Shown: positions 2,150 through 42,076, counted from the stretch's first letter. The stretch is 64,000 bases of DNA from Chloroflexota bacterium (GCA_016219545.1 JACRMH010000041.1:69297-133296), one strand, 5' to 3'. Notes: generated from the letters alone by a model not told the origin. Numbers and translations are program-made.

Positions 2150-2284
2150 TGTCGCTCTGAGGGAGCGTTCTCCCTGGCACCGCCCGCCAGGGCAGGTGTC
2201 GCGACCGAAGAGTCTCGTGTTTTTAGCGTAGAGATCCTCACCGCACTGGCGCGCGGCGCAAGTGTCGCTACGCTCAGGACGACA
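2150..2284. repeat. REP-like palindrome carrying two nested micro-inserts (2172-2198 and 2239-2264)
   Basis: TGTC..CTGAG / CTCAG..GACA outer arms; a related copy is at 31727-31824. Confidence 0.75.
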
Positions 2285-2348
2285 TTTTTGAGATAAGTAT
2301 CAAAAAAAACGCACCATAAAAATTCTTATAAGTAAATTAGCAAGGGGA

Positions 2349-3536
2349 CTATTTAATAATTTTCCTGACGGTTGGTTTGTAACCTGGAAAGACCTGCTCC
2401 ACTGTGGGGTTATTCAAGCGCTTCATTAATATTTCGGAAAGCACATCGCGATAATCGGTTGTGACGGCGAGGTCGCCGGGGCCGATCAATTGACCTTCCC
2501 GCAAGCCGGGCCATGCTCCGTGGACCTTGCCGCCATTCACATTCCCACCCAATACCATCATCATACTGCCGTGACCGTGATCTGTCCCCAAGCTTCCATT
2601 TTCAGAACAGCGCCGCCCAAACTCAGACATGGTGACTGTGGTGATCTTGTTCATGTGGTCGAACATATCTGCATGAAAAGCGGCGAGACCTTCGGCGAGG
2701 TCTTTCATTAGGCCGGGCATCAAGCCGCTGGTCACACCCTGAGCGAAATGTGTATCCCAGCCGCCGAGATCAATGGCCGAGACTTCGAGTCCCACATCCG
2801 CTTGGATGAGCATGGCAGTTTGTTTGAGCGCAAGCCCAAATTCAGAGTCGGGATATTTCGCGTCACGCACCGCGAGATAAGTCTGCGGGTCGAGCTTTTC
2901 AAGCGTGTTCATGATCGCAAGCGTATCCTGCCCAAGCACGTCATTTTGATAAACACTGCTCAACGCGCTTTGCATTTGCTTCAACGCGCGCATATCTCCG
3001 CCTAGATGAAAATCCGCGATGGACCTTAGCACCGAGACGGGCACTGATCCGGCGAGACTCTTCTGCGGGCGAGTCCCCATACCTACAGCGCGGAGCGGCG
3101 ACACATTACCGGTATTCAATGCCGCGAGATGACGACCGATCCAACCCGAAGCAGGACCGCGCTCATCGTCCACACCGCGCTCCATCAGTTCCATCGCTTT
3201 GAAGTGACTGCGCGACTCGTCCGGCGCACCGCAGGCGTGGATAATGGCAAGCTGTTCGCTTTGCCAGGCATTAGTCAACGTTTGCATGGATGGATGAAAT
3301 CCAAAGAATCCGTCGAGGTCAATTGCGCGTTCATCCTTTTTTGCGCTTGTGTCATCCGGGCGCGGAATGCCGAGTGACGGGCGCAGTTGATAATAGGCGT
3401 CCTCGCCGTGCGGCACAACCATGTTGAGCACATCCGCTGCGCCGCGTAAAAAGATGACCACTAAAGTGTCTCCGCGTTGGGCAGTGTTCGTGGGAGCAAA
3501 TGAAAGACGGGGCATCCAGGTTGTTTGTGTGAGCAT
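2349..3536 (-). CDS. DUF1501 family protein
   Basis: LVVIFLRGAAD.LN, SRSHF, GGWDTH, SEFGRR..ENGSLGTDHG, TTDYRDV motifs; paired with DUF1800. Confidence 0.9.
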   Translation of the reverse strand: MLTQTTWMPRLSFAPTNTAQRGDTLVVIFLRGAADVLNMVVPHGEDAYYQLRPSLGIPRPDDTSAKKDERAIDLDGFFGFHPSMQTLTNAWQSEQLAIIHACGAPDESRSHFKAMELMERGVDDERGPASGWIGRHLAALNTGNVSPLRAVGMGTRPQKSLAGSVPVSVLRSIADFHLGGDMRALKQMQSALSSVYQNDVLGQDTLAIMNTLEKLDPQTYLAVRDAKYPDSEFGLALKQTAMLIQADVGLEVSAIDLGGWDTHFAQGVTSGLMPGLMKDLAEGLAAFHADMFDHMNKITTVTMSEFGRRCSENGSLGTDHGHGSMMMVLGGNVNGGKVHGAWPGLREGQLIGPGDLAVTTDYRDVLSEILMKRLNNPTVEQVFPGYKPTVRKIIK

Positions 3537-3556
3537 AATGACTCCTAAAGTTTTTC

Positions 3557-3647
3557 GTCATTGCGAGGAGGGCTTTAGCCTGACGAAGCAATCTGTTTAT
3601 TGGCTTGGAGATTGCTTCAGGCGAAAGAACATCGCCCTCGCAATGAC
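3557..3647. repeat. REP-like palindrome (GTCATTGCGAG...GAAGCAATC / GATTGCTTC...CTCGCAATGAC), uninterrupted copy
   Basis: Same family at 30504-30634, 37000-37141, 48146-48243 and 60511-60600. Confidence 0.85.
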
Positions 3648-3654
3648 AGAGACG

Positions 3655-5136
3655 TTATCTCCATTGAAACGCGGGCGAAGCGATCAGGCTTGCGGCGATG
3701 ACCTGCAAAGTTTCTTCTTCATTCGCTCCGGCAGATCGGATCGATTTGATCAATTCATCGCGCACAGTGTTCGACATTGAAGCGCCCAATAATAAAGATG
3801 AGATCGAATCAACATCGTCTTGTAAAATTCCCGTTGATGCGACATCCAACAAAGATTTGAGATTATGTTTCGTGCCACCGATCTCATTGCGGATCAATGC
3901 GAATGCGAACTGCCAGCGCGGCATGAGATTTCCCTGCCACGCTTCGCTGCGGTCAGGATAACCATCGGGCGTGGTCCAGTTGAAGTAGAGTTGTCCCATG
4001 CGAAGGAGATAATCTTGAACACCAGCGGCATCGGTTTCCACGTTCAACATCCTCATGGCAGAGAGGACAAAGTTTGCGGGACGTTTGTATTTTGGCTGTG
4101 CGAGGGGCAGTCCATCCAACAAAATAATTCGCAGCACGGATTTGATATCGCCTTTTGAGGTGAGAAAAACCTTCGAGGCTTTTTCGACCAACTCAACGGG
4201 AGGTTGATCCGCGATGAATCGGCGCGCAAGTTTTGTCGCAACGAATCGCGCCGCGCTGGGATGAGTCACCAGTGTTTCGATCACCTGCTCCGCTTCTTTG
4301 ATCCCGTTATTAGGAATTGTCATGCCCAAAATATTTTTTGTGCCCGTGTCGTGCAGGTTTTCCTTGAAGACAAAATCACCGAGCCAGAAATGTTCCTTGA
4401 CGTTCCAGCCCGTTAGACAGCGCGCCAGTTCCATTACATCCTGCTGGCTGTAGCCGCCGTCCACGCCGAGGGTGTGCAATTCCATTAACTCGCGCGCATA
4501 ATTTTCATTGGGCGCGCCCTTTTGATTCGCCTGATTGTCGAGATAGGTCATCATGGCGGGTGAATGCGCGGAAGCCCATACCAGGTCACGGAATGAGCCG
4601 AGCGCATTCTTGCGGATCACTTCGCGGTCGTCAACGGTCTTGAGGTAAAAGCAGTTGCCCTTATCAATGTAGATGTTGAAATGGTCGCTCCAGAATTCCG
4701 TCATCACTTCATAGAGTTGACGCTTGCTGTAAAGTTGACGCACGAGCGTGGCGCGGCGTAATTCGTCCGGCGCTTTTTCGCGGTCATAATTTTCAAACAG
4801 TTGGTTGCTGATGCCTTCGATCTCATTTGCCGCCATCTTGAGAGTCTTGAACGGGGTGAGTTGAAGCTCGCAATCGAAATCATTGATCGTTTTAAAATCA
4901 AGCTGTTCTTCGATCCATGCCTGCAAACCGATCCCGGCAAAACGCGCACGCTCCTCCACACGCGGACCGAAGGTGAGTCTTTGAAGCGCAAGGAAATCAC
5001 GCTCGCCGAGCGGAGTCCACGCAGTAGTGGGAAGGTCGCCTGCCAGTCTGCGATACACGGGCGCACACGAGGATAGCGCCGCGCTGGCAGTGACAAGTGC
5101 TCCAAGTTTAAGAAAGTCGCGTCGGGAAAGAGTCAT
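3655..5136 (-). CDS. DUF1800 family protein with Tat/lipoprotein signal
   Basis: SRRDFLK Tat motif then LSSC lipobox; FWSDHFN, YLDN, NENYARELMELHTLG, DVMELARCLTGW, SPAFQWR motifs. Confidence 0.9.
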   Translation of the reverse strand: MTLSRRDFLKLGALVTASAALSSCAPVYRRLAGDLPTTAWTPLGERDFLALQRLTFGPRVEERARFAGIGLQAWIEEQLDFKTINDFDCELQLTPFKTLKMAANEIEGISNQLFENYDREKAPDELRRATLVRQLYSKRQLYEVMTEFWSDHFNIYIDKGNCFYLKTVDDREVIRKNALGSFRDLVWASAHSPAMMTYLDNQANQKGAPNENYARELMELHTLGVDGGYSQQDVMELARCLTGWNVKEHFWLGDFVFKENLHDTGTKNILGMTIPNNGIKEAEQVIETLVTHPSAARFVATKLARRFIADQPPVELVEKASKVFLTSKGDIKSVLRIILLDGLPLAQPKYKRPANFVLSAMRMLNVETDAAGVQDYLLRMGQLYFNWTTPDGYPDRSEAWQGNLMPRWQFAFALIRNEIGGTKHNLKSLLDVASTGILQDDVDSISSLLLGASMSNTVRDELIKSIRSAGANEEETLQVIAASLIASPAFQWR

Positions 5137-5157
5137 AGTAAATAGTTGGTCGGTAAT

Positions 5158-6294
5158 TTATGGATTCGCACGGAACGAATCCCACACCTGCAGGGCGGGT
5201 TTTGGCGTGCCATCTTTTTCGCGCAAGCCCACATTGACAAAGAATCCCAGAGTGTTGATGTCGTCTTTGCTTGTGCCTTGCTGGTCGAAATATTTTGCAT
5301 ACGAGTCGATGTTCAAATCGCTGAACAGCAGATAGATCCAAAAGTCGAGTCGCTCACCAATCTGGGTGTGGATCGCGTTGAGATAATCCACCTGATCTTG
5401 AGGAGTGCCGGGAAGGTTTTCAGTCTGTCGTGAGATAAATCCACCTTCGGCAACGGCCAGCGGCTTGTTGGTGCGTGTGAGCAGAGGAGTGTAATAGTCC
5501 GCGGGAATCTCGCTGCCGGTGCGGAACGCGATGAACGGATAAGACGAAATCACCCACAGATCAAGCTGCGGCTCAAAGACTTCGATATATTCCCATTTGG
5601 TCTCATAAGGTGCGCCTTGGCCTTCAATGGGGACAACACTATTTAACTGCTCCCATTGAAAAGTGACGAATACCTTTGTCTCAGGCGATTCTGCTTTGAC
5701 AGCGGCGTATGTTTCGCGATAGAGGCTGAGAAAATTCGGAAAGTCTTCGGGGTATGCCTCAGCGTACGAGTTGATCTCGGAAGCGAGTCCCAGATATTGC
5801 GGTTTGAACTCGCGCAGGACTCTCAGTGTGAAGTTCTTATATGCGCTGCGAACTTCGGGGGTGGAAAAATTCGCGTTGCTCCAGTCAGTGGGCAGGCCGG
5901 AAAACTCGCGCCGGTTCAATCCATTGAGCGGATCAATCACATAGATCGATTCAAGATTATTCGCCCGCGCAAGGGTCTGCGCGTTTATCATGTCTTCGAT
6001 CTTTTTTGATTTGGAGTCCGCGCTGGATACAAAATCCAACCACGGAATATTTTCCTGAACCAGAGTCACATCGGCGTGTTGTCCCATATCTTTGTACATG
6101 GCGAAGACGCTATTCAAAGAAACTTCTGATGGAGTGGGGAAAAATCCATAAGCGGTGCGTCCGCTCTCGAAGACCGAGGGTTCGGGAGTGTAGGTTGGGT
6201 CTGGGTAGGGCGACATACTTTGGCCGCAGGCCATGCTAACGATGAGGATCAGCAAAACGGGAAGGAATGATCGTGACATCGAAAATTTATGCAT
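5158..6294 (-). CDS. Lipoprotein, putative glycoside-hydrolase-like TIM barrel
   Basis: Hydrophobic signal ending SMAC; LASEINSY and VAEGGF glutamate motifs; start chosen at the ATG overlapping the upstream stop codon. Confidence 0.55.
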   Translation of the reverse strand: MHKFSMSRSFLPVLLILIVSMACGQSMSPYPDPTYTPEPSVFESGRTAYGFFPTPSEVSLNSVFAMYKDMGQHADVTLVQENIPWLDFVSSADSKSKKIEDMINAQTLARANNLESIYVIDPLNGLNRREFSGLPTDWSNANFSTPEVRSAYKNFTLRVLREFKPQYLGLASEINSYAEAYPEDFPNFLSLYRETYAAVKAESPETKVFVTFQWEQLNSVVPIEGQGAPYETKWEYIEVFEPQLDLWVISSYPFIAFRTGSEIPADYYTPLLTRTNKPLAVAEGGFISRQTENLPGTPQDQVDYLNAIHTQIGERLDFWIYLLFSDLNIDSYAKYFDQQGTSKDDINTLGFFVNVGLREKDGTPKPALQVWDSFRANP

Positions 6295-6811
6295 GGGAAG
6301 GTGCTGTCTCATTCGGCGTGGACTGAGTCTTCTCGCGCGGCATCCAATTCAACAGGGCAAAACTCGCCGCGCCAAAGGAAATGATGACCGCAATCGGCAA
6401 AAGAAAGAACCACCCAATGACGGGCAGGAATGACGTCAGTTCGAGAATGACCGCGCCGCGGATGAATCCTGCCAGCGGACTGAACACACTGCCCGCCCGT
6501 TTCATTTGTTCGCTCAGATGCGAGGAAATTCCCGCCGAGCCAATCGAGGAAACCGCAAACGAAGCCGCCAGCAATACCCAACCGAGGAATTTGGCGGGAC
6601 CGAATGGAAGCACAAGCAGGATCACAATTGGGATCGCCAACGCGATCATGACCCCAAGCCCCATCCAGAACGTTCCTCCGAGAGTCTTTTCCACGCGTAC
6701 CTGGGCGCGCGCAACAAGGGGCGGGAACAACAACCACCAAAGAGTCAACATGCTCGGAAATGCAACCGAGATGATGAGCAGAATAAAGAAGATCGCAGAA
6801 ATATCAGCCAT
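6287..6811 (-). CDS. Integral membrane protein (about 4 TM)
   Basis: Hydrophobic 174 aa ORF with LPVIGW motif; resembles the 6951-7439 product. Confidence 0.75.
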   Translation of the reverse strand: MADISAIFFILLIISVAFPSMLTLWWLLFPPLVARAQVRVEKTLGGTFWMGLGVMIALAIPIVILLVLPFGPAKFLGWVLLAASFAVSSIGSAGISSHLSEQMKRAGSVFSPLAGFIRGAVILELTSFLPVIGWFFLLPIAVIISFGAASFALLNWMPREKTQSTPNETAPSHA

Positions 6812-6842
6812 GTTAATTTCCTTTTGTTTATTTGATATAGGG

Positions 6843-6871
6843 AATACAGGAGGGGATATGAAAAAGTTGCG
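6843..6871 (-). promoter_or_regulatory. Putative ECF-sigma promoter (CGCAAC-N17-TGTATT)
   Basis: Shares GCAACTTTTTC-N9-CCTGTATT with the copy upstream of the ECF sigma gene. Confidence 0.7.
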
Positions 6872-6950
6872 GTTTATGAAGTTAACTCAGGTTAAAGAAA
6901 AAGACGCGGGATGAGCGCGCCTTTTTGGAAAGATAAAAGAAGAAAGAGGT

Positions 6951-7439
6951 TTAGGTATTGCGTTGGAAGAATCCCAGAATGGCCGCGCCAATACCGACAA
7001 AGCCGACATAAGGCAGCAGCAGAAACCAACCGAAAAGCGGAAGCGCGCACGCAAAGCACAAGATGACAGTGCTCCATAGGTTTCTTTTCCATGCTGCCAT
7101 ATCCGGGAATATCTTTTCTCCCAGAGATTGAACCATGCCGGTTAACCCAATGCTCAAAAGGATCGCGAGAAAAATAAGGATGGCAAATGCAGGGATCGTT
7201 AGAATGCCTCTCACGAATGCGACTGCATTTTGAGATACAGACAACAACACCAGCGCGATCACACCGAAGAAAAGAAAATTTACCATCCCCAACCCAAACG
7301 AACGCCACGGCATTTGCTGAATGATGTTTTTTGTTTTGAGCACACGCTCTGTGAACAGTGCTCCGATCACAAGAAAATATGCAGAGAGGGTAATGGTCAA
7401 CAGAAGGGTTACAAAGAACAAGCGAAGAACGTTATCCAT
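6951..7439 (-). CDS. Integral membrane protein
   Basis: Hydrophobic 162 aa ORF with LPLFGW and GIGAAIL motifs. Confidence 0.75.
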   Translation of the reverse strand: MDNVLRLFFVTLLLTITLSAYFLVIGALFTERVLKTKNIIQQMPWRSFGLGMVNFLFFGVIALVLLSVSQNAVAFVRGILTIPAFAILIFLAILLSIGLTGMVQSLGEKIFPDMAAWKRNLWSTVILCFACALPLFGWFLLLPYVGFVGIGAAILGFFQRNT

Positions 7440-7452
7440 GGGTGGTCTCCAA

Positions 7453-7959
7453 TTATTTCAATTGATTTTTTAGCAGTACACCGTTTCCCAGCAGCCAGAG
7501 GATGGATACGCCCGCAAGCGCGATCATCAGGCTGGAGAATTCGGCAATGTGAATTTCAGGCATGACCGGCATATGCATCTGTGAAAGCATATCGAGCGCG
7601 GCTGTCCATTGGGACTGGATTTCCGAAATAAAAGTCAAAAGTGACGACGGTTCAATGGCAGGTAAAAGATTAATCACAAACGGCGCAGCGATTATGACTC
7701 CAGCCAGTGCAATTGCAGATTGCAGCACAGCGGTCAACGTGAGCCAGCGCGGCAGGGTATACGTCCTTATGAGTGGAGAAGCGAGCGGGCACGACAAGGC
7801 AACTTCGGGCAGAGACTCCAGCTCGGCAAATAAGGATTCAAGCGCGGAGAGCCGCGCAGTGCAGTCCGCGCATGAGGCGAGGTGATTTTCGACCGTGGCA
7901 CGATCCGTAATTTCATTATCGAGGTATTCGTTCAAGAGTTCGTCGGTTAGATGATTCAT
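7453..7959 (-). CDS. Zinc-binding anti-sigma factor (zf-HC2) with TM segments
   Basis: HLASCADC (HxxxCxxC) motif; ATGA overlap with the sigma gene. Confidence 0.9.
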   Translation of the reverse strand: MNHLTDELLNEYLDNEITDRATVENHLASCADCTARLSALESLFAELESLPEVALSCPLASPLIRTYTLPRWLTLTAVLQSAIALAGVIIAAPFVINLLPAIEPSSLLTFISEIQSQWTAALDMLSQMHMPVMPEIHIAEFSSLMIALAGVSILWLLGNGVLLKNQLK

Positions 7960-8483
7960 TTCAGTTTCTCCGCCAGAATTTTGCGGGCTCGAAAAAGGTG
8001 ACTCTTCACGTCGCTGACCGGAATGTTCAACTCCACAGCAATCTCGTCATAGGATAGTTCCTGAAAATGACGAAGTTCCACGACTACGCGATAATTTGCC
8101 GGAAGAGCGGCGATGGCTTTGCGGATAAGCTCGCTTCGTTCGCGGGTTTCATACGCAGCCTCGGGCTGATTATTCTCATCCGCGAGGCGCTCGTCATCGA
8201 TCTCCACTGTGGGCTTTTGCGTCTCGAAATAATTCAGGCAAATGTTCGCCGCCACACGCCGCACCCACGGACCAAAGTCGCGCTCAAGATCGAACAAGTC
8301 AAGACGGGAATACACGCGCAAAAAAGTCTCCTGTGCAAGGTCTTCCGCTTCGCGGCGTTCATGCGTCATGCGATAACAGACGTTGAAGACACTCGTCTGG
8401 TAACGTGTGGTGAGTTCGCCGATCGCCTCGGCATTCCCGCCACGGGCACGCAGGATCAGATCGCGGTCTGTAAGTGCATTCAT
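7956..8483 (-). CDS. ECF RNA polymerase sigma factor (SigW-like)
   Basis: AEDLAQETFLR region 2; LSYDEIA...VKSHLFRARK region 4. Confidence 0.95.
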   Translation of the reverse strand: MNALTDRDLILRARGGNAEAIGELTTRYQTSVFNVCYRMTHERREAEDLAQETFLRVYSRLDLFDLERDFGPWVRRVAANICLNYFETQKPTVEIDDERLADENNQPEAAYETRERSELIRKAIAALPANYRVVVELRHFQELSYDEIAVELNIPVSDVKSHLFRARKILAEKLK

Positions 8484-8494
8484 CGCTTAAGGAT

Positions 8495-8523
8495 AATACA
8501 GGCGGGTGCGCGAAAAAGTTGCA
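8495..8523 (-). promoter_or_regulatory. Putative autoregulatory ECF promoter (TGCAAC-N17-TGTATT)
   Basis: AAC-type -35 and GTA-type -10, ending 11 nt before the sigma ATG; duplicated at 6843-6871. Confidence 0.7.
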
Positions 8524-8603
8524 GAAATTAAAAATCTCATCTGCTACTTTTCAAAGCAAAGGACTCATTCTATAGTCTATCAGGCTTGATTTTTTGGATA
8601 TTT

Positions 8604-9947
8604 TTATTCAATGACTCGGTCAGTCAATTGGATGGCCAACCCGATATAGGATTCCGGCGAGAGACTCTGCAAGCGGCTGCGGGTTTCATTGTCCACTTCA
8701 ACCGCTTCAACCCATGACCTGTAATCTGCTTCTGTCAAGACGCGGCCTCTTGTCTGCTGTTTGAGTGACTCGTATGCGTCGCTTTTGCCCACTGCACGCA
8801 GGATGGTCTGTGCTCCCTCGCTGACAACTTCCCAATGCGCTTCGAGTTCTACTTTGAGTTTATCTTCATCTGCCGCGATGCGACTCAGTCCGCGTAATAA
8901 ATTTTTCCATGCGAGCAATGTATGTCCCAACGCTGTGCCGAAAGTGCGGCGAACTGTTGAATCAGACAGGTCACGCTGCAGACGGGAGACAGTTAATTTT
9001 TGGGCGTAATGCACGAACATGGCATTGGCAATACCGAGATTTCCTTCCGCATTTTCAAAGTCAATTGGGTTAACTTTTTGCGGCATGGTGGAAGAACCAA
9101 CTTCCCCAGCGACAACGGCTTGTTTCAGATAACCGTCGCTGATGTAGCGCCACATATCCTGGGAGAAATCTATCAAAATGGAATTCAACAAGCGGACAGC
9201 GTCAAAATACCGCACCCAATTATCGTATGGCAAGATCTGATTGGTGAGTAAATTTGGTTTTAGGTTGTATTGCGAAATGAAATCCTGGCTGAAAGCGATC
9301 CAATTAACATTGGGGACGGCAGCCTGCAGAGCGTTGAAGTTTCCCACCGCGCCGGTCAGCTTGGCTTCAAAGATATGTTCCTTGATGAGTTTGTGCGCTT
9401 CTTTCAATCGCGCCAGATACACGGCAAATTCTTTGCCTAATGTAGTCGGCACTGCGGGCTGACCATGAGTCCGCGCGAGCATGGGCAGGGAGCGATAACG
9501 GATGGCGAAGTCTTTTAGCGTATCAATCAAAGACTCTATCGTTGGTAAAAGAACAGCATCACGAGAGTCCCTTAGTGCAATGACTTGCGCAATATTATTT
9601 ACATCTTCGGATGTCAGACCGAAATGAATCCACGGAAATAATTCGGCAGGAATTTTTTCACGCAGAAAATATTCAATGGCTTTCACGTCATGGCGAGTCT
9701 CACGCTCGAAGGCTTGAATGGACTCCGCATCTGAGTCGTTGAAATTGGGTATGACTTCATTGAGCAGGCGGGTTTCAGAGTCACTCAAAGGGCGGATCAA
9801 ACCGATCTTGGAAAGAGCAGGCAAATAGTCCAGCTCGATACGAACCCGGTCGCGCAGAAAAGCAAACTCGGAAAAATAATCCCGCAGCGGCTCGGTTAAA
9901 TCTGTGTAGCGTCCATCCAATGAAGAAAGAGCGTGAAGAGGTTTCAA
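8604..9947 (-). CDS. purB: Adenylosuccinate lyase
   Basis: SLDGRY, TRHDVKAIEY, RTHGQPA, GSSTMPQKVNPIDFEN, SRLQRDLSDS. Confidence 0.97.
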   Translation of the reverse strand: MKPLHALSSLDGRYTDLTEPLRDYFSEFAFLRDRVRIELDYLPALSKIGLIRPLSDSETRLLNEVIPNFNDSDAESIQAFERETRHDVKAIEYFLREKIPAELFPWIHFGLTSEDVNNIAQVIALRDSRDAVLLPTIESLIDTLKDFAIRYRSLPMLARTHGQPAVPTTLGKEFAVYLARLKEAHKLIKEHIFEAKLTGAVGNFNALQAAVPNVNWIAFSQDFISQYNLKPNLLTNQILPYDNWVRYFDAVRLLNSILIDFSQDMWRYISDGYLKQAVVAGEVGSSTMPQKVNPIDFENAEGNLGIANAMFVHYAQKLTVSRLQRDLSDSTVRRTFGTALGHTLLAWKNLLRGLSRIAADEDKLKVELEAHWEVVSEGAQTILRAVGKSDAYESLKQQTRGRVLTEADYRSWVEAVEVDNETRSRLQSLSPESYIGLAIQLTDRVIE

Positions 9948-9965
9948 GTAGTGGTACTCCGTGTG

Positions 9966-11450: not shown

Positions 11451-11478
11451 AAGTTTTTTTCTCCTTATATATAAAAAG

Positions 11479-11539
11479 GCAGGGGCGACCCTTCAAATTC
11501 TGCAAGATATCTTGCTCTCACTGGGCGGGTCGCCCCTAC
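11479..11539. repeat. GTAG-type REP pair (AGGGGCGACCC / GGGTCGCCCCTAC)
   Basis: Related copies at 44750-44776 and 49596-49622. Confidence 0.7.
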
Positions 11540-11551
11540 AGTGTATGGTAA

Positions 11552-12130: not shown

Positions 12131-12147
12131 GAGATAAATTCCTTTCC

Positions 12148-12212
12148 AACGGATTATTTAACGGATGAACGGATATTGCAACGGATCGCCTTCGGCGAAC
12201 GGATAAACGGAT
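12148..12212. repeat. AACGGAT repeat array with small CGCCTTCGGCG hairpin
   Basis: Six AACGGAT units; siblings at 14021-14068 and inside purF at 16891-16930. Confidence 0.75.
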
Positions 12213-30488: not shown

Positions 30489-30503
30489 CTGATGATTGAT
30501 TCC

Positions 30504-30634
30504 GTCACACCTGCACTGCACCAAACGCAGTGCGGTGCAAGTGTTGCGAGGGCGATGCGTTTCCGCCCGAAGCAATCTCACGCACTCACTGAAATTGCTT
30601 CGCCGCAAAGAACAAGAGCGCGGCTCGCAATGAC
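30504..30634. repeat. REP-like palindrome with a 36 nt nested insert (30508-30543)
   Basis: GTCA[insert]TTGCGAG...CTCGCAATGAC. Confidence 0.8.
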
Positions 30635-30650
30635 GAAAAAAGGATAACCC

Positions 30651-31726: not shown

Positions 31727-31824
31727 TGTCGTTCTGAGCGTAAGCGAAGAACCTCTGAGATTATCTTCGAGACCCTCACCGCACTGGCGCGCGGCGCAAG
31801 TGTCGCTCACGCTCAGGGAATCAC
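31727..31824. repeat. REP-like element with a 26 nt nested insert (31777-31802)
   Basis: Insert identical to 2239-2264. Confidence 0.75.
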
Positions 31825-32554: not shown

Positions 32555-32675
32555 AACAGCGATCAACCCTACTCGCTGCAAGAGTCGAACAGGAAAATGA
32601 TATAGTGTGAACCATGTGATTAAATGGGATTCGATGTCAACATGCAGGCAGAGGTCCCGATCAACAAATGTATAC

Positions 32676-32728
32676 GTACCGCGACATTTATGTCGCCTGC
32701 CATAATAGCGACATAAATGTCGCGGTAC
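32676..32728. repeat. GCGACATTTATGTCGC palindrome family (doublet)
   Basis: Siblings at 35707-35732, 41818-41843 and 47757-47778. Confidence 0.75.
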
Positions 32729-32751
32729 AAAAACCAAAGGAGACTAAACAA

Positions 32752-33732: not shown

Positions 33733-33737
33733 CGTTT

Positions 33738-33790
33738 ACAGGTTGGCAGGTTGGAACGTTCAAACGTTTCGACCTGCCAACGTTCAAACT
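33738..33790. repeat. Inverted arrays of 8 nt units (CAGGTTGG / AACGTTCA) between convergent genes
   Basis: caggttgg caggttgg aacgttca aacgtttc gacctgcc aacgttca. Confidence 0.6.
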
Positions 33791-33797
33791 GGGGATG

Positions 33798-34826: not shown

Positions 34827-34870
34827 AGTTATCAGTTATCAGTGAACAGTAAGCAGTTATCAGTTGATGG
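34827..34870. repeat. Heptamer (nCAGTk) tandem repeat
   Basis: agttatcagttatcagtgaacagtaagcagttatcagttg. Confidence 0.7.
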
Positions 34871-34883
34871 TTAGCGGTGAAAA

Positions 34884-35690
34884 TTATAAATGTCTCAAAA
34901 ACGAATTGGGACTATTCAGAAAATCTTTTGTGAGTTTTACGTGTTCAAGGTCTTCATATTGTACCCGTTTCATCTCGCCGTTTTCAAAACTGACAATGTC
35001 GGCTTCGGGGAAAGCCAAAATGATTGGCGAATGTGTGGCGATGATGAATTGGGACTCCTGTTCCAGCATTTGTTTCAACACGGAGAGGAATGCCAGTTGA
35101 CGCGTGGGCGAAAGGGCGGCTTCGGGTTCATCCAAAAGATACAGTCCGCCCGGCACAAAGCGGGATTGGAACAAGGTCATGAAACTTTCGCCGTGGGAAC
35201 GCTGGTCAATGCCCTCGCCGTATCTTCTTTTGATGGCATGTAGTTCATTTCTATACGGAAGCCGCGCCAGGTCAGCGGCGAATTTGGAACGCCCCTTATA
35301 TTCATCGTCAACCGCGTCCAGATCATGGCTCAATTCTTCCTGCGTTTGCCGCATGGCTTTGGCATAGCCGAAAAAATCCTCGGCGCGCAGGAAGAATCCT
35401 TTATGTGTGCGTTTTGTCCATGAAAGACGGAAGTACTGCGAGAGTTTACGCACCCCTGCCAGCGTTTTATCGGTCTTGACGCTTTCACTGCCCACCGTGA
35501 TCGAACCGATTGCGCAGGCAATGGATTCCATGACAGTGGATTTGCCCGATCCATTCTCGCCGACAAAGAATGTGATCGGCGAGTTGAATTCGATCCCCTT
35601 GAGCGACTTGACGATCTCCAGCGTGAATGGAAAGTTTTCAGAGTCCTTTTCATTCCATTCACGCACGGAGATGGATTTCAGATGGATCAA
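34884..35690 (-). CDS. ABC-type ATPase (AAA_21-like, no TM domain)
   Basis: GENGSGKST, RSHGESF, LLDEPE, IATHSP. Confidence 0.88.
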   Translation of the reverse strand: MIHLKSISVREWNEKDSENFPFTLEIVKSLKGIEFNSPITFFVGENGSGKSTVMESIACAIGSITVGSESVKTDKTLAGVRKLSQYFRLSWTKRTHKGFFLRAEDFFGYAKAMRQTQEELSHDLDAVDDEYKGRSKFAADLARLPYRNELHAIKRRYGEGIDQRSHGESFMTLFQSRFVPGGLYLLDEPEAALSPTRQLAFLSVLKQMLEQESQFIIATHSPIILAFPEADIVSFENGEMKRVQYEDLEHVKLTKDFLNSPNSFLRHL

Positions 35691-35728
35691 TTTCTATTCC
35701 TGTAAAGTGCCGCGACATTAATGTCGCG

Positions 35729-36979
35729 CTACGATTTCCACTTCTTCATTGGCAAAACAAAATCGTATGGATACTCGGCGAGGGTTTCCATCTTGCCATC
35801 GGGACGCACCCAGAGCGTATCCTCGATACGGAAGCCCATTCCCTTTTCGGGATAATACAGTCCCGGCTCGGAGGTAATGACCACTCCCGGTGCGAGGCGA
35901 TGTTCGTCACCAAGGATCAAACTGCTGAACGGTCTCTCGTGGATGTTGAGTCCCACGCCGTGACCCAATCCATGCACATACCCTTCGACGGGCGCTTTAG
36001 TATGAAGCGGAGTCTGATGTCCCTTTGATTCGTAGTACTCACAAACCATTTGTTGATAGTTTCGGAATGGTGCGTTCAAATCAAAGTTATCGTTCAACTT
36101 GTCGAATATCTCTTTTACCTGACCATAAAGTTCCAACGCTTCGGGAGTGGCATATCCCAAACTCCAGGTGCGTGTGAAATCATAGTAATATCCGCCGCCG
36201 GGTTCGGCGGGATAAATATCGAACACGATCGTCTGACCGAGTTTCATCAGGTCCTTGGGGTTGCCCGCGGAATGTGGCACGCCGGCGTCATGTCCGATGG
36301 AAAAGATAAAGCCCGAAGGAAGTTCTGCGCCAAGCTCCGAGACCCATAAATGGATCTTCGAGTGGACGTCTCCAATGGTCAGCAAGGAACCATCTTCGTT
36401 CAGCAAAACCTCATCGGCATTCACATCGCGCGAAGTTAGGAAGTCTCTGACTTTTGCCACAACTGCCGTGGTGATCTTTCCAACCTTGCGGATGCGCGCC
36501 ACTTCGGATTCATCCTTGGTTTCCATCGCGCGCATGAAGATCGAATCCTCACGCGCCTCACCGACAAATTCAACAGCGGGCATCAATTTCTGCAGGTGCG
36601 AAAGCAGTCCAAATGTTGCGCTGAGATCGTAAGTCCCATATACGCCCACTCGCCCCGAAGTGACGCCGGCATCTTTGAGCATCAACTCGCAGCGCAAGGC
36701 ATTTGCCAGCAAAGCATCCTTGTTCGCTTTTTTATTCAGGGCATCAAAATCATAAGTGCTGTAGGGGATTAATTTCAATCCACTCTTTCCGGCTTCATCT
36801 CGTTCCATATCGCCGAAAAAGAAGATGGCCTCTTCGCCCTGTTTCTTGATCAGCGTGGCATGGCTGACATGCCCGCCGCCTGTTAAATATCTCATCGGCG
36901 GGTTATGCTCGGCGTTGCCAAACACAATGAGCGCGTCCATGTTTTTGGTTTTCATGATTGCATCTAAATCTGATTTCAT
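35729..36979 (-). CDS. M24 family Xaa-Pro peptidase
   Basis: FDIYP, YYDFTRT, HGLGHGVGL.IHE, EPGLY, RIED. Confidence 0.92.
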   Translation of the reverse strand: MKSDLDAIMKTKNMDALIVFGNAEHNPPMRYLTGGGHVSHATLIKKQGEEAIFFFGDMERDEAGKSGLKLIPYSTYDFDALNKKANKDALLANALRCELMLKDAGVTSGRVGVYGTYDLSATFGLLSHLQKLMPAVEFVGEAREDSIFMRAMETKDESEVARIRKVGKITTAVVAKVRDFLTSRDVNADEVLLNEDGSLLTIGDVHSKIHLWVSELGAELPSGFIFSIGHDAGVPHSAGNPKDLMKLGQTIVFDIYPAEPGGGYYYDFTRTWSLGYATPEALELYGQVKEIFDKLNDNFDLNAPFRNYQQMVCEYYESKGHQTPLHTKAPVEGYVHGLGHGVGLNIHERPFSSLILGDEHRLAPGVVITSEPGLYYPEKGMGFRIEDTLWVRPDGKMETLAEYPYDFVLPMKKWKS

Positions 36980-36999
36980 AATGTCTCCATTGATATGAT

Positions 37000-37141
37000 G
37001 TCATTGCGAGGAGCGTATTTCCCTGGCACCGCCCGCCAGGGCAGGTGTGCGACGAAGTAATCTCCTATTAAATAATGAGAGATTGCTTCGCTCGTTCCAC
37101 CCGCTCGCAACACTTGCACCGCACGCAAGTGCAGGTGTGAC
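37000..37141. repeat. REP-like palindrome with two nested inserts (37021-37047 and 37111-37137)
   Basis: First insert identical to 2172-2198; second related to 30508-30543 and at the equivalent host position. Confidence 0.8.
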
Positions 37142-37148
37142 GGTAATT

Positions 37149-38501
37149 TTATAAAGCATTCTTCAACCCAACCAGCAAAGCACCTTCCTGTTCCGGCAAA
37201 ACGGTACGCGGGTCGAGCAGGATTTTGTCAGCTTCGGTACGTGCGATGATGGGCGGATGCTGCTGGCGTAATTTCTTCAAGAACTTATCCGGCGATTTGA
37301 CTTCCAGCGATAATAAATATGTTTTAGAAGACTCGCCTGGGAGACTTCCTCCTCCCACAGTGGATTCACCCTCCACAACATTGCCCTGACCTAATTGATC
37401 CTTCCACGCTTCGGCGCGACCTTTGACCTGCTTCGGCGTGAGTGACATCATCTTCCAGATCGGGATTTCCCGCTCCGCGTCGTCTTTGAGGTAATGTAAC
37501 AACGTAGCGGTGATTCCGGCGAGACAAACTTTGTCGGCACGCACGGCACGCGCCAACGGATGTCTCTTGATCTTATCGAGCAATGTCTTTTTGCCGACAA
37601 TGATCCCCGCCTGCGGACCGCCCAGCAATTTATCCCCTGAAAAGCAGACAATATCTGCGCCAGCGGCAAGTGACTCTTGAACTGTTGGTTCATGTGCAAT
37701 TCCATATTTGGCTGTGTCGAGCAGTGCGCCGGAGCCGAGGTCATCTACAAGAATGAGATCGGCTTTATGCGCCACGTCAACAAGTTCGTTTAATTCGGGT
37801 TCTTCAGTGAATCCGATCACCTTAAAGTTGGACGGGTGTACGTGCATGATGAGCGCTGTGGGATCTTCGGCAGCGGATTGATAATCGGATAAACGGACTT
37901 TGTTGGTGGTGCCCACTTCCACCAGCTTTGCGCCGGATTGTTTCATCACATCCGGCACGCGAAAGCCGCCGCCGATCTCCACAAGTTGCGAGCGAGAGAT
38001 GATGACTCTTTTTTTATTTGCCAATGCAGATAAGACCAGCAAAACAGCGGAGGCATTATTATTCACCACCAGCGCAGACTCGGCGCCGGTCAACTTTTGT
38101 AAAACGGATTCAGCATGAAGTAAGCGCGAACCGCGCACGCCTTTTTCAAGATCATATTCAAGGTTGGAATATCCGCGTGAGACAATATCCATGGCATGGA
38201 TGGTGGCTTCGCTTAATGGGGCGCGTCCCAGATTGGTGTGCAGGATGACTCCCGTGGCGTTGATGACCGGGACAAGAGTCGGCTTTGTCCACGCGGAGAG
38301 GGTGGAGTCTGCCTGGGCGAGGATCATGTCAATTGAAGGCAGGGCAGGTTGAGGGTCAAGTTTGAAGCGCGCGCGGGTTTCGTCCAATGTGAAACGGATG
38401 GCGGTCAAGGTCAACGGCCGTCCATATCGCGCGATCAGTTCTGCGGCAGTTTGTGTGCGTAATAATTGTCCAACAGAGGGAAGCTCACGAAGGGTTGTCA
38501 T
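37149..38501 (-). CDS. selA: L-seryl-tRNA(Sec) selenium transferase
   Basis: VINATGVILHTNLGRAPL, VNNNA, EIGGGFR, EVGTTN, FSGDKLLGGPQAG. Confidence 0.96.
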   Translation of the reverse strand: MTTLRELPSVGQLLRTQTAAELIARYGRPLTLTAIRFTLDETRARFKLDPQPALPSIDMILAQADSTLSAWTKPTLVPVINATGVILHTNLGRAPLSEATIHAMDIVSRGYSNLEYDLEKGVRGSRLLHAESVLQKLTGAESALVVNNNASAVLLVLSALANKKRVIISRSQLVEIGGGFRVPDVMKQSGAKLVEVGTTNKVRLSDYQSAAEDPTALIMHVHPSNFKVIGFTEEPELNELVDVAHKADLILVDDLGSGALLDTAKYGIAHEPTVQESLAAGADIVCFSGDKLLGGPQAGIIVGKKTLLDKIKRHPLARAVRADKVCLAGITATLLHYLKDDAEREIPIWKMMSLTPKQVKGRAEAWKDQLGQGNVVEGESTVGGGSLPGESSKTYLLSLEVKSPDKFLKKLRQQHPPIIARTEADKILLDPRTVLPEQEGALLVGLKNAL

Positions 38502-38889
38502 CGGGGATGGTTGGCTTTTTCCAGTTGGCTTTTTCGCGCAATCGAATGAAGTATTCAACGGCGATCAAACCGCCCGCGAGACCGAGGATCACGTAAAGCG
38601 TGACGAGGCGTCCGAGTTGAAGCCATGCTAGTGTTGCAAAAAATACGCCCACCCAAATGGATTGCCGCACAATGGCATTGGACTCGGCCGGCGGGTCGCT
38701 GGGAAAACGCTGGTTGAAAAAATATACAAATGGCATTGACGTGCCGGTGAGCGCAATGATGCCGAGGACAAAAAATCCCCAGCGCGCCCAAACAAAGGGC
38801 AGGGAAAAATATAAGAGCGCCGCAAGTCCGCCCCAGCCGATGATGATGAGGGCGATGATAGAGGCAAGATATGATTTGAAGGTTTGCAT
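38485..38889 (-). CDS. Small 4-TM membrane protein
   Basis: Hydrophobic ORF overlapping the hepT stop and the selA start. Confidence 0.7.
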   Translation of the reverse strand: MQTFKSYLASIIALIIIGWGGLAALLYFSLPFVWARWGFFVLGIIALTGTSMPFVYFFNQRFPSDPPAESNAIVRQSIWVGVFFATLAWLQLGRLVTLYVILGLAGGLIAVEYFIRLREKANWKKPTIPDDNPS

Positions 38890-39227
38890 TATTCCTCACC
38901 CAAAATTATTTTCATTTGGTCAAGCAATGCCGGAATGATATTTTCAACGATGTCCCAAACGATCTCATCACTGACACCAAAATAATTATGAGCAACGATG
39001 TCTCGAAAGCCTGCGATCTTGCGCCATGTAATATGCGGATATGCTTTTCGTATTTCTTCAGGGATGTGTTTAACGGCCTCGCCGATGATTTCCAAATTTC
39101 TCAGCACCGCATCAAAGTGAAGGTCATCGTGTACAAAGTCTTTGTAAGCCATCCCCTTGGTAAACTTCAAGACTTTCTCGCAACACTCGACAATATCCGC
39201 AAGATACAACGACTCATCACGCGACAT
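38889..39227 (-). CDS. HepT-like (DUF86) HEPN RNase toxin
   Basis: RNLEIIGEA and RDIVAHNY (Rx4HxY). Confidence 0.92.
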   Translation of the reverse strand: MSRDESLYLADIVECCEKVLKFTKGMAYKDFVHDDLHFDAVLRNLEIIGEAVKHIPEEIRKAYPHITWRKIAGFRDIVAHNYFGVSDEIVWDIVENIIPALLDQMKIILGEE

Positions 39228-39507
39228 GGATCAGGTCTCTCGTTACATTTTCTTTAATACGCGGTTTGATCGCCTGCGGCGTTACCAAGTCCACCTTACA
39301 GCCAAGAACTTCTTCAAGATAAAATTTCGTATCCATGAAACGGTTGAAGGTGGCGCGGCCTTTGAACTCGACCAGAATATCCACGTCACTGTCGGGTCGT
39401 TCCTCGCCGCGCGCAACCGACCCGAAAATTGACAGTGACTTTACGCCCAATTTGGTCAACTGGTCACGGTGTTTGCGGATTCGGGATATGACGGTTCTGC
39501 GTGTCAT
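39217..39507 (-). CDS. MntA-like minimal nucleotidyltransferase antitoxin
   Basis: FGSVARGE...SDVD (GSx10DxD); TATAAT 6 nt before the ATG. Confidence 0.92.
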   Translation of the reverse strand: MTRRTVISRIRKHRDQLTKLGVKSLSIFGSVARGEERPDSDVDILVEFKGRATFNRFMDTKFYLEEVLGCKVDLVTPQAIKPRIKENVTRDLIHVA

Positions 39508-39559
39508 GTGGTTATTATACAACATGGACAGAATGCCTTTGTTAACGGCTGATAAAAAA

Positions 39560-39614
39560 CCACTGAGACATTGAGGTACAGAGTTTTTTCTCTGTGTCTC
39601 CGCGACTCAGTGGT
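39560..39614. repeat. CCAC.GAG...CTC.GTGG palindrome family
   Basis: Related to 29105-29157, 41978-42076 and 47504-47561. Confidence 0.6.
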
Positions 39615-39648
39615 TTGATGCTTAATTAGACCTGACAGGTTTTGGAAG

Positions 39649-41799
39649 TTAAATTTTCTTCTTCGCCTGTTCAACGACTGCAAGTACTTCGGGCGTATCA
39701 ATGCCAAGTTCATGCAATTTCTCTGGCGTGGGAATGCTATTCGCATCCCAGCCGCGGCGTTGATAGACAGCATCCATTAATTGCTCATACTGGTTTTCAC
39801 GATATTTGCGTAAATGTTTCATCTTTTCTTCAGTGGTTATGCCTTCGGGCTCAACTTCAATCAGACGTTTGAGCTGTTCATCATAGCGGTCCTGTCGCGA
39901 TTCATATTCCGCCACGGTGACTGGTCCCATGGCACGATAGGGCGGGAAGTCATGCTGGCGGCCGACACGTCCCATTCGTAATGCAAAGACTTTTTGGAAG
40001 TTGTAAACGCGCTCCGATTGATTTAGCAAATCTTCGATCCGGGTCGGCTTGCCGGTGACGCCTTGATGGATCCACGTGTAATTTTCAACATGCTCTTCCA
40101 CTTTGGCAGGCTCTTTGGTCTGTTTATTATTTTCGGGAGAAATATCATTCCACGGAAGTTTGCAAAGTCCATGCAGGCTGAACCAAGTGCGCCACATGGG
40201 GAAGTAATGCAACGCTTCGGCCTTGTCCTTGAACGACGGCAAAAGATTCTGCACCTGATCCATGAAGATCAACCAGGCTTCATCATGCTGTGGACCTTTG
40301 GTCGCCATGCCATAGCCACCCTGCTGTGCGAGCGACTCCTTGGTGAGGTATTCCGAAATTTCCATTCCCTTAATTTCCATGCCAATATCATGCAGGAATA
40401 TCGGGTCGGCCCCGTATTCACTTACAAACAATTCCTTCATGTAGCGAATGCCCTGACCAACGATCACGCCAAAACCGTCACCGCGCGCCATTTGATGCAG
40501 GAGTTCCAGAGCGGCGGAACCGTTGCCAAAGTTCAATTCAAGTCCGCCGGTTTGCGCTTTGGTGATGTAACCTTCTTCATAACATTCCATCGCAAAGGCG
40601 ACGCAGTTGGCGAACGAGATGCTGTCCACGCCGTACGTGTCGCAATAGAAGTTAAGTTCCAAAACTTTTTGCGGATCGAAATTGCCGATATTCGAACCCA
40701 GCCCGGCAGCGCCTTCATACTCGGGACCATCCACCAGAACGCAATCCCCGGCATAAGGTCCGGTTTTGAGCGGGAAGTGATCCACGCCATGCGAACAGCT
40801 CATGGTGCATCCCAGCCAGCAGCCATCGGGCAGTCCCTGAGTGAAGGATTCCTTCCAGACTTTCGAATCAATCAAATGCGTGTCAGGATGCGAACCGTAG
40901 CGGTAATTATGCGTCGGCAAAAGGTCAAAATGATCCATCACTTCCACGATGTTGGCCGTGCCGATCTTGCGCATTTGATTCTGCTTATCATCTAAATCCG
41001 CAATTTCCTTGTTAATGCGCTGACCCGCCTTGCGGATAAGCGCCATATCCGCCACGCCATTTTTATCGCCGCCCATGTCGGTGTAACGCACCACGATGGC
41101 CTTGATCTTCTTATCGCGGAAGACGCGCCCCGCGCCGCCGCGCCCCGCCTGCTTGAAACGCGCCTCCCTGCGGCGCACATCGTACCAGGTGGAATTGATC
41201 AACGCATAGCGGATATGCTCCGCGGCCTGACCGGCCGACAGCACCGAGATCCCGCGCCGACCTTTGTCGTCGCCTCCGTACCGCGCTGTGAGCTGGTTGC
41301 CAATCTCATGCGAATCCAGCACATCAAGCGGATCGGACTCAATCGTCACTTTGCCAGTATCCCCGTCAATAAAAATGACCACATCCTCAGCCGCCTTGCC
41401 CTGAATCTCGATTGCATCGAAGCCGGAGAATTTTAAGAACGGCGCAAAATATCCGCCCACATTGCTGTCAATAACATTATCCGTCAGCGGACTGAGAGTC
41501 ACCACCGTGGATTTGCCGCTGCCCGGATAAGCCGTGATGCCGCAAATAGGTCCATTGGCAATGACGAGTTCATTCTGCGGGTCATTCCATTTTGTTTCGG
41601 GAGTGACCGCATCCCAGAGGAGTTTGAGAGCAAATCCGCGCCCGCCGGTGAAGATGTCCTTCATCTGCTGTGTGACGGGTTTCTCGCGGAAGATATTATC
41701 GGTTAAGTTAATGTAAAGCGTGCGATTGGCATATCCGCGCTCTACGGAATGTTTTTCGTAGGTATATTCGCCCAAAAGGGTGGATGTAGCTATGGTCAT
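39649..41799 (-). CDS. Aldehyde:ferredoxin oxidoreductase family (tungstopterin) enzyme
   Basis: SPLT...DSNVGG, AGRGG.G, GCWLGCTMSC, GPEYE, CDTYGVDSIS, Y..RGWD..IPT. Confidence 0.9.
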   Translation of the reverse strand: MTIATSTLLGEYTYEKHSVERGYANRTLYINLTDNIFREKPVTQQMKDIFTGGRGFALKLLWDAVTPETKWNDPQNELVIANGPICGITAYPGSGKSTVVTLSPLTDNVIDSNVGGYFAPFLKFSGFDAIEIQGKAAEDVVIFIDGDTGKVTIESDPLDVLDSHEIGNQLTARYGGDDKGRRGISVLSAGQAAEHIRYALINSTWYDVRRREARFKQAGRGGAGRVFRDKKIKAIVVRYTDMGGDKNGVADMALIRKAGQRINKEIADLDDKQNQMRKIGTANIVEVMDHFDLLPTHNYRYGSHPDTHLIDSKVWKESFTQGLPDGCWLGCTMSCSHGVDHFPLKTGPYAGDCVLVDGPEYEGAAGLGSNIGNFDPQKVLELNFYCDTYGVDSISFANCVAFAMECYEEGYITKAQTGGLELNFGNGSAALELLHQMARGDGFGVIVGQGIRYMKELFVSEYGADPIFLHDIGMEIKGMEISEYLTKESLAQQGGYGMATKGPQHDEAWLIFMDQVQNLLPSFKDKAEALHYFPMWRTWFSLHGLCKLPWNDISPENNKQTKEPAKVEEHVENYTWIHQGVTGKPTRIEDLLNQSERVYNFQKVFALRMGRVGRQHDFPPYRAMGPVTVAEYESRQDRYDEQLKRLIEVEPEGITTEEKMKHLRKYRENQYEQLMDAVYQRRGWDANSIPTPEKLHELGIDTPEVLAVVEQAKKKI

Positions 41800-41977
41800 G
41801 TAACTCTCCTGTGATTTGTGCCGCGACATTTATGTCGCGCTACGGGTGTCTTCTTTACCACTTTCATTATCAAGGAAAGGACGTGGAATGCCAATTGATA
41901 ATCTTCCCCTTCTGGGAGTGTCAAGAGACAGGAGGATATATAATTGAAACTCTCCCCTTTCTGGCAGGAAGACCTTT

Positions 41978-42076
41978 ACCACAAAGGAACCAAGGGTCAC
42001 AACACTTGCGCCGTACGCCAGTGCGGTGAGGGAAAAAGCTAAAAATCCTTTGTGTACCTTAGTGACCCTTCGTGGT
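41978..42076. repeat. Palindromic repeat with a 26 nt nested insert (42003-42028)
   Basis: Insert is the reverse complement of the 2239-2264 type with 2 changes. Confidence 0.7.

Follow-up and report, generated by a model that had tools for sequence, protein, structure and literature searches.

The stretch analysed here, referred to as the window, is the 64,000-nt segment G000:C24:69297-133296 of the metagenome-assembled genome (MAG) of an uncultured groundwater Anaerolineales bacterium (Chloroflexota), an assembly of 4.15 Mb in 68 contigs with 49% G+C; the region is also present in four groundwater sequencing runs. G000 denotes this source genome and other G numbers its relatives, while C numbers are G000 contigs and L numbers are compared loci. 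Within the window lie seven micro-elements of 26-36 nt, each lodged inside a larger palindromic repeat of the repetitive extragenic palindrome (REP) kind, most of them paired as inverted doublets (REP doublets forming hairpins, REPINs). A first-pass annotation had picked out these seven from the sequence, and we found its sequences, coordinates and identities to be exact, with 0 matches expected in dinucleotide shuffles. The genome-wide catalogue described below places the same seven elements in the window and no others. The elements and their host repeats are listed here, with a caret marking the position of the element in its host.

2149-2284, unstranded: host-2 inverted doublet (GTGTCGCTCTGAGGG ... 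CGCTCAGGACGACA), holding both a B27 and an A26 micro-element
2172-2198, + strand: B27 micro-element (CCCTGG...GGGCAGGTG), left arm of the host-2 doublet, at TTCT^TCGCG
2239-2264, + strand: A26 micro-element, right arm of the host-2 doublet 2149-2284, at TCCT^TCGCT
30504-30634, unstranded: host-1 REPIN-like inverted doublet (GTCA..TTGCGAG...CGAAGCAATCTC / ..ATTGCTTCG...CTCGCAATGAC), holding C36
30508-30543, + strand: C36 micro-element, at GTCA^TTGCGAG
31728-31824, unstranded: host-2 doublet downstream of a terminator hairpin; no examined relative has a doublet at this site
31777-31802, + strand: A26 micro-element, at GAGACCCT^TCGCT, identical to the copy at 2239-2264
37000-37141, unstranded: host-1 REPIN-like doublet, holding B27 and C27
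37021-37047, + strand: B27 micro-element, inner hairpin of the left arm of the host-1 doublet, at ATTT^TGCGAC, identical to the copy at 2172-2198
37111-37137, - strand: C27 micro-element, right arm, at GTCA^TTGCGAG (minus-strand reading)
41963-42075, unstranded: two host-3 units (CCACAAAGG..GGTCAC / TCCTTTGTGTACCT^TAGTGACCCTTCGTGG), the second being an empty site
42003-42028, - strand: A26 micro-element with a GTAC loop, within a host-3 unit (minus-strand site TTCCCT^TTGTGACCC), with 2 changes relative to the other two A26 copies of the window

The empty host forms that had been named for comparison are all present: GTCATTGCGAG at 3557, ...CTCCTT/TGCGACGAAGC at 48150-48195, and AGAGACCCTTCGCT 17 times in the genome. 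The stretch at 48150-48195 is an empty paralogue of the B27 host at 37021-37047, and the AGAGACCCTTCGCT copies are empty paralogues of the host-2 doublet at 2149-2284.

Genome-wide catalogue, boundaries and hosts

The catalogue was built by clustering all GCA(A/G)GTG sites of G000 by upstream sequence, followed by curation. This search, which the first-pass annotation had proposed, returned 93 copies in about 12 sub-types (A26, 25 copies; B27, 23; C36, 11; C27, 8; A27T, 6; A27i, 6; D26, 5; F27, 3; and a few longer derivatives), which have in common the pattern 5'-CAC/CCC...GCAC(T/C)...GCA(A/G)GTG-3'. Sequence repeated at least five times adjoins 73 of the 93 copies, compared with 2.9% of random positions, and 29% of copies fall within frames that run at least 150 codons without a stop, compared with 87% of random windows.

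For the boundaries, we joined the 7 nt to the left and the 7 nt to the right of each copy, shifted the 5' and 3' ends by -4 to +4 (81 combinations) and scored how often the resulting 14-mer recurs in the genome. Only the exact boundaries gave junction 14-mers seen at least four times (33 elements, summed count 497); none of the other 80 combinations exceeded 2 elements or a summed count of 29. An unbiased scan over all GCARGTG sites recovered the same lengths (26, 27 and 36) at offset 0. Since the host is restored at offset (0,0) only, the insertions are precise and leave no target-site duplication, as had been proposed, and the element edges are not ragged. The base following the element is T in 76 of the 77 scored copies. 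A26 is preceded by CT in 25/25 copies and followed by TCG in 23/25, while the preceding base is T (18) or C (5) for B27 and A (16) or T (12) for the C-like types.

Copies of the micro-elements occupy at least four host repeat families, hairpin loops, and one another. That type A resides in more than one host family was borne out: A26 sits at CT^TCG in at least three, namely host 1 (GGAGATTGCT^TCG..., also GGAGATTGCT^TCGTCGGG, in an arm of the abundant GTC(G/A)TTGCGAG...CGAAGCAATCTC doublets), host 2 (GAGACCCT^TCGCT...) and host 3 (the CCACAAAGG/GGTCAC family). The genome has 12,267 CTTCG sites, and the 23 TCG-flanked A26 copies are confined to about 230 host sites (183 + 49, hosts 1 and 2). 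B27 is found at T^TG, in GTCGT^TGCGAG, in the loops of inner hairpins and within other micro-elements; its contexts number more than 10. The C types are found at GTCA^TTGCGAG, at GTGTACCT^TCGTGACCC, and at the centre or in the loop of REP hairpins of the GTAG type, for example GGGGCGCAA^TATATTGCGCCCC. The earlier view of a structure-targeted element is therefore only half right, as the target of type A is strict in sequence too (CT^TCG). Nesting inside another micro-element was seen for seven copies: four B copies in reversed A at CACT^TGCG, one B in a C36 loop, and two J39 in reversed B. As had been noted for the window, the inserts are more alike than their hosts, with pairwise identities of 93-95% for inserts and 33-46% for flanks.

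Further layers of nesting and other contexts were seen. In two 41-nt A26 derivatives (C53:30749-30790 and C68:55556-55597) part of the loop is replaced by a small palindrome (TGATTTGC..GCAAATCA), making a third nesting layer, and two micro-elements (C46:37458-37484 and C8:65986-66012) lie inside GGATGAA-type heptamer arrays. Heptamer arrays within pur genes of the window had been pointed out in the first-pass annotation. Genes between neighbouring elements showed no recurrent pattern, and element pairs within 4.5 kb showed no regular arrangement.

In a 27-column alignment of the 12 sub-type consensuses, GCAC is invariant at columns 6-9, as are GCA and GTG at the 3' end. Each sub-type is able to fold into either of two hairpins that exclude each other. 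One pairs the 5' arm with the stretch directly before GCA(A/G)GTG (CCCTGGC/GCCAGGG, CACC(T)GCAC/GTGCGGTG, CATTGC/GCAACG or CCCAG/CTGGG, depending on the sub-type); the other is built on the base CAC(T/C)/(A/G)GTG and extends to the last nucleotide of the element. The arms vary among sub-types yet remain complementary. Among the 150 listed B-type copies, from about 29 genomes, the linked positions read CACC..GGTG in 112, CACT..AGTG in 35, T..G in 3 and C..A in 0, which are counts of sequences and not of events. A covariation count over a single structure common to all sub-types failed, with the stems standing in different registers in each sub-type and only the 4-bp CAC(T/C)/(A/G)GTG base aligning throughout. 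The rule that all copies end in GCARGTG stood as regards the motif but not as regards polarity: type B aligns best to the A/C types in reverse (22/27 identical to A27T, vs 16/27 forward), and the motif thus represents two near-symmetric termini of the CAC(C/T)TGC type, not one polar end. Rfam gave no match to the micro-elements, its one match in the window being a tRNA; a tRNA gene lies at 47610-47681 (- strand), near a putative solitary integron cassette (45998-46733) of the first-pass annotation.

Occupancy of orthologous sites and age of the family

The flanking genes of congeners are only 70-85% identical to those of G000, and intergenic repeats often go unshared. Alignment of orthologous intergenic regions nevertheless revealed empty and filled alleles at four informative syntenic loci. 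At the first, the C36 host at 30504-30634, G056 has the same doublet type between the same two genes with GTCATTGCGAG intact, and carries a reversed B-type element in the other arm, where the window is empty; the whole doublet is missing in G024, G044 and G003. At the second, C50:67610, the REPIN interior of G024 is near-identical to that of G000. Here the GTCA^TTGCGAG site is filled by A27T in G000 and unoccupied in G024, and the mirror site in the other arm is filled by a reversed B27 in G024 and unoccupied in G000. At the third, C68:58712, G000 has A26 at GATTGCT^TCGTCG, a site that is empty in both G056 and G044, while G044 instead has a 28-nt C-type element at GTCA^TTGCGAG of the other arm. 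At the fourth, C45:79172, both G000 and G024 have a C36 in the same host, placed in different arms and pointing opposite ways. Because the same host repeat is empty or filled elsewhere in congeners, these insertions or excisions post-date speciation, and the individual insertions are younger than the species splits. Loci 31777, C50:72566/72608 and C50:78479 were uninformative, the relatives being without the whole host repeat there. In G016 (L113), a solo C-like copy stands in non-repeat DNA (TATATATAA|...|TTCGC). With empty alleles, sharp boundaries and several host families all observed, the elements look as the first-pass annotation had expected of an independent element and not of a fixed variant of one REP subfamily.

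The data of the four groundwater runs consist of short Logan contigs that are broken at repeats. Contigs from the metagenomes of the source aquifer part at element ends, exactly at 30507/30544 and near 37019/37051. No clean filled/empty micro-element allele was seen in the short contigs of the four runs, and a metagenome scan with a unique anchor beside the 31777 locus gave 0 matches.

Scans of related genomes place the pattern well beyond G000. The A/C core pattern occurs in 17/24 congeners and, within the same GTDB family, in 74/150 genomes from 21/36 genera; of 16 genomes from the order's other families, 0 have it. The B core is present in 54/150 genomes, likewise from 21/36 genera of that family, with up to 65 copies in one genome. 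A reversed-pattern control gave 0 in all genomes scanned. The element had been described as young, which does not agree with its occurrence in 21 of 36 genera; given this family-wide occurrence, the element family is old.

The surroundings of the host repeats are themselves variable. In a relative of about 90% identity from the same aquifer, contigs join 30493 to 30647 with 9 other letters, so that the whole host REPIN (30494-30646) is missing. In G022 (L028, 2130-2320), the REPIN orthologous to the one at 30504-30634 has other, unrelated small palindromic inserts in both arms (e.g. of the GTCGAG..CTCGAC type), and mini-elements of several kinds generally land in the variable interior of this host family. 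Flanked by the same pair of conserved genes, the spacer that corresponds to 36985-37155 (L111-L139) varies within the genus from about 0 to about 670 nt. It is either empty or contains REPINs, GTAG REPs, a solo micro-element or an inserted small gene, of which there are two different ones, making it a turnover hotspot.

Candidate movers and mechanism

The micro-elements have precise boundaries, multiple hosts, nesting, an occupancy of orthologous host repeats that differs between species, and a family-wide distribution, and their mobility is well supported. We consider it probable that they form a superfamily of REP-class, self-complementary, non-coding elements of 26-36 nt that insert, or are excised, precisely at N^T, without duplication, into hairpin-prone targets, and that are moved in trans. 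Under this proposal, an element would enter or leave where a base that varies meets a T, most often at T^T or A^T, with type A using CT^TCG. Hairpin-prone DNA would be the preferred landing site, be it an arm or loop of another REP/REPIN family, the loop of a GTAG-REP, a heptamer array or a fellow micro-element, and a host-encoded nuclease-ligase would move the elements in trans as folded single strands.

By analogy, the mover most likely to be responsible, which we put forward tentatively, is a HUH Y1 enzyme, either a REP-associated tyrosine transposase (RAYT) or one of IS200 type (IS, insertion sequence). We favour this single-strand model because of the absence of duplication, the hairpins, the short target and a layout resembling a right end: the invariant GCAC(T/C) could act as a guide, followed by a variable hairpin and a terminal (A/G)GTG that would be cut before the flanking T, as at the IS608 right end. 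A further possibility, more speculative, is that the 26-27-mers are a minimal self-contained HUH-type substrate held in one overlapping two-state hairpin, that a domesticated enzyme moves them throughout the family, and that REP folding sets the target. Were this true, the micro-elements and the cyanobacterial small dispersed repeats discussed below would make up a tier of bacterial mobile DNA, widespread but overlooked, whose members are smaller than miniature inverted-repeat transposable elements (MITEs).

Several observations weigh against this proposal. No enzyme is linked to the micro-elements: of 57 Y1 loci (9 in G000 and 48 in ten element-rich relatives), 0 are flanked by micro-elements in the manner of RAYTs. 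No longer parent element with micro-element ends was found, nor any pair of such ends 60-6000 bp apart in G000. IS608-type elements show a lagging-strand bias, and the micro-elements showed no orientation bias relative to local GC skew (p = 0.14), in what is a weak test because the MAG is fragmented. The invariant flanking base is 3' of the element, whereas the conserved target of canonical IS200/IS605 elements is 5'. Single-sequence DNA folding energies are unremarkable (z -0.7 to -2.6), and the linked positions of B and B2 may reflect one inherited double change instead of repeated compensation. Lastly, the A26 loop variants are partly host-associated (CGCG mostly in host 2, GTAC mostly in host 1), from which it follows that some copies spread with their host. 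Some copies have clearly spread passively by amplification of the host repeat; six identical A27i copies are in one GTAG-REP loop with the same flanks, and two B27 copies (C24:22899 and C27:97071) have identical flanks.

G000 encodes nine Y1-like genes: a typical IS200 TnpA (C40), the IS200-like TnpA of the window, four RAYTs, and three Y1-like domain proteins without HUH. Each of the four RAYTs lies between copies of its own GTAG-type REP family (C26:4475-5140, C46:29650-30340, C33:78000-78720 and C16:72400-72535, with REPs GGCGCTAGAGAGCGCC.ACTAC, GTAGGTCACG.., GCGACATTTATGTCGC and GTAGGGGCGACCC..), and four REP-RAYT systems are unusually many for one 4-Mb genome. The three paralogues without HUH (C35:35294-35713; C37, minus strand, 178 aa; C33:30287-31954) keep a C-terminal Y-I-x-x..Q and have (Y/F)(L/F)(Q/H)W in place of HUH. 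One of them is fused to an N-terminal region of about 400 aa, and orthologues occur in all ten relatives examined. Judged by these motifs, the three may be catalytically dead binders of hairpin DNA.

A route that does not involve HUH enzymes appears rather unlikely. It would consist of a small RNA copied back into DNA, or of a recombinase or nuclease of a kind so far unrecognised, for which the near-palindromic duplex of 26-27 bp (11-bp arms, 4-5-bp centre) would be the recognition site. The lack of a Y1 gene associated with the elements, the lack of strand bias and the 3' position of the invariant flanking base are in keeping with such a route, and the near-symmetric termini (CAC(C/T)TGC...GCA(A/G)GTG; the reversed B of 22/27 identity to A27T) would suit a dimeric duplex binder. 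However, no candidate enzyme or RNA was found, nor any Rfam match. Recombinases need homology with a partner site, and there is none between the junction (GTG/CAC) and the targets (CT/TCG), while reverse-transcriptase routes usually give ragged ends or duplications, neither of which was seen.

The first-pass annotation had pointed to the TnpA of the window, at 43219, as the mobiliser in trans. The features concerned are context only with respect to the micro-elements:

43198-43635, + strand: IS200-like Y1 transposase TnpA
43040-43150, + strand: left-end module of TnpA, some 110 nt long and holding four hairpins; its sequence has no relation to the micro-elements, and the genome has effectively one copy of it

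The protein is an intact Y1/HUH protein (PF01797, 1.3e-24; NF033573), and A/C elements occur in 16/24 genomes with an orthologue of it (at least 63% identity) vs 58/126 without. Four of the five B-richest genomes (G181, G168, G173 and G000) have the orthologue, and the fifth, G137, has a 43%-identical homologue, which is the sole HUH-bearing Y1 of that genome of 65 B copies. At L031, a B-like copy lies about 50 nt downstream of one orthologue. Against this, the association is weak and uncorrected for phylogeny, with the rich genomes clustering in two genera. Several element-rich genomes are without an intact orthologue: the congeners G003, G024, G017 and G044 (10-14 A copies each where counted) have none, and G001 (19 copies) has a broken one only. 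In G084 (16 elements) there was no match at E<=1e-25, while the IS200-like gene of G086 (30 elements) is more distant. The gene also has ends of its own. Its orthologues lie in a different neighbourhood in every species, and most have the conserved four-hairpin module (GAGCGGGGCT..AGCC.., GAAGCCC..GGGCT, GAGTCCGC..GCGGACT and GGCAGGG..CCCGCC; loci L032-L066) on both sides in direct orientation, the window copy having the upstream module only. We therefore regard it as quite unlikely that this enzyme mobilises the micro-elements; the window TnpA is probably not the mover. At several loci (L032, L039/L040, and L030 as compared with the window), some 60-90 nt of outside flank are repeated on both sides of TnpA, and the insertion mechanism of this IS200-like element looks unusual.

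That the micro-elements are fixed variants of host REP subfamilies, spread solely by amplification or gene conversion of composites, is highly improbable: the A27i and B27 copies with shared flanks and the partial host association of the A26 loops fit such spread, but A26 occurs in hosts 1, 2 and 3 beside many different inner hairpins, B27 contexts include other micro-elements, a solo copy stands in non-repeat DNA (G016), and orthologous REPINs with near-identical interiors differ by the insert only, so that C50:67610, C68:58712 and C45:79172 largely refute it.

Relation to known mobile repeats

The view that these elements belong to no described class is not supported by the literature, in which nested small dispersed repeats (SDRs) of Nostocaceae and REPs lodged in palindromes are on record (PMC5861425, PMC3116915, PMC3733652). 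The micro-elements are also REP-sized (20-40 bp). The micro-elements are a known but rare kind in a new, well-documented form. SDRs are said to be 21-27 nt, non-coding and dispersed, to keep a common secondary structure despite sequence differences, and to have no known mover; they are embedded in other repeats (HIP1, heptamer arrays, mini-transposons), nested in one another, and confined to one coherent taxon. In 2008, Elhai et al. reportedly described SDR1-8 of Nostoc punctiforme and relatives as 'very small mobile repeated elements', with heptamer arrays as a context, and suggested a small-RNA route by which they return into DNA. Like SDRs, the micro-elements are below about 40 nt, dispersed, nested in repeats and in one another, and keep their structure across divergent sub-families. 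They differ in lineage (Anaerolineales of the Chloroflexota as against Nostocaceae) and in length (26-36 nt), and the CAC...GTG termini, the invariant flanking T and the CT^TCG target are specific to the micro-elements. SDRs have not been found outside Nostocaceae (PMC5861425).

With REPs and the REPIN-RAYT system, which are 20-40-bp imperfect palindromes, mostly extragenic and present in tens to hundreds of copies (Bertels & Rainey 2011, PMC3116915; PMC3733652), the micro-elements have in common their form (26-36 nt, 93 copies, hairpin-forming), vertical persistence over long times and the absence of target duplication. REPs are also regularly lodged inside other palindromes, as with GTAG-15 of Anabaena, GTAG-23 of Thermomicrobium roseum (Chloroflexi) and CGTC-1 of Halothiobacillus (Di Nocera et al. 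2013, PMC3733652). Unlike REPs, the micro-elements have no GTAG or CGTC tag (their termini are CAC(C/T).. or CCCTGG.. and ..GCA(A/G)GTG, and GTAG occurs only in other repeat families of G000). They are singletons inside the doublets of other families and form no REPIN doublets of their own, their hosts are themselves high-copy REP/REPIN families, and no cognate RAYT is flanked by them. In size and form the micro-elements are REP-class, but lacking the tag, doublets of their own and a cognate RAYT, they fall outside the REP/RAYT system as defined.

IS200/IS605 elements (IS608 and ISDra2, with single-strand 'peel and paste'; overview PMC6006769) resemble the micro-elements in the absence of duplication, hairpin-based ends and a short sequence target, and the IS608 right end offers a close parallel in its guide-like CAC(T/C), its hairpin and an (A/G)GTG at the extreme 3' end. 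As regards a fixed target, A26 has CT^TCG and the other types have only ^T in common. The micro-elements differ in having one overlapping hairpin pair in place of separate left and right ends, which leaves no room for a left-end guide, in the side of the conserved flanking base, and in showing no detected replication-strand bias. No parent IS with such ends was found in G000, which speaks against IS200/IS605 miniatures. A classical DDE-dependent MITE was also rejected, given near-inverted termini but no target-site duplication. The same applies to an origin from integron attC sites or cassettes, since there are no R''/R' cores (RYYYAAC / GTTRRRY) and no G^TT junction, the 5' flank being T, A or C and not G. 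In fungal and algal organelles, mobile G+C-rich clusters and ultra-short palindromes of 30-40 nt proliferate, nest, target short sites and are non-coding. These differ from the micro-elements in being organellar, in their AT-rich context, in short duplications in some cases, and in unrelated sequences.

For the experimental study of how REP-class repeats spread, filled and empty orthologues, nesting and sharp boundaries here give an insertion footprint, namely no duplication, N^T and, in one sub-type, CT^TCG. Such a footprint lends itself to a simple assay in which the few candidate enzymes are tried for cleaving and joining oligonucleotides. The persistence of these elements across dozens of genera and their remodelling of other repeat families are relevant to repeat annotation, to breaks in MAG assemblies and to studies of REPIN populations. 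Very small mobile repeated elements, documented so far only in Nostocaceae, are hereby extended to the Chloroflexota.

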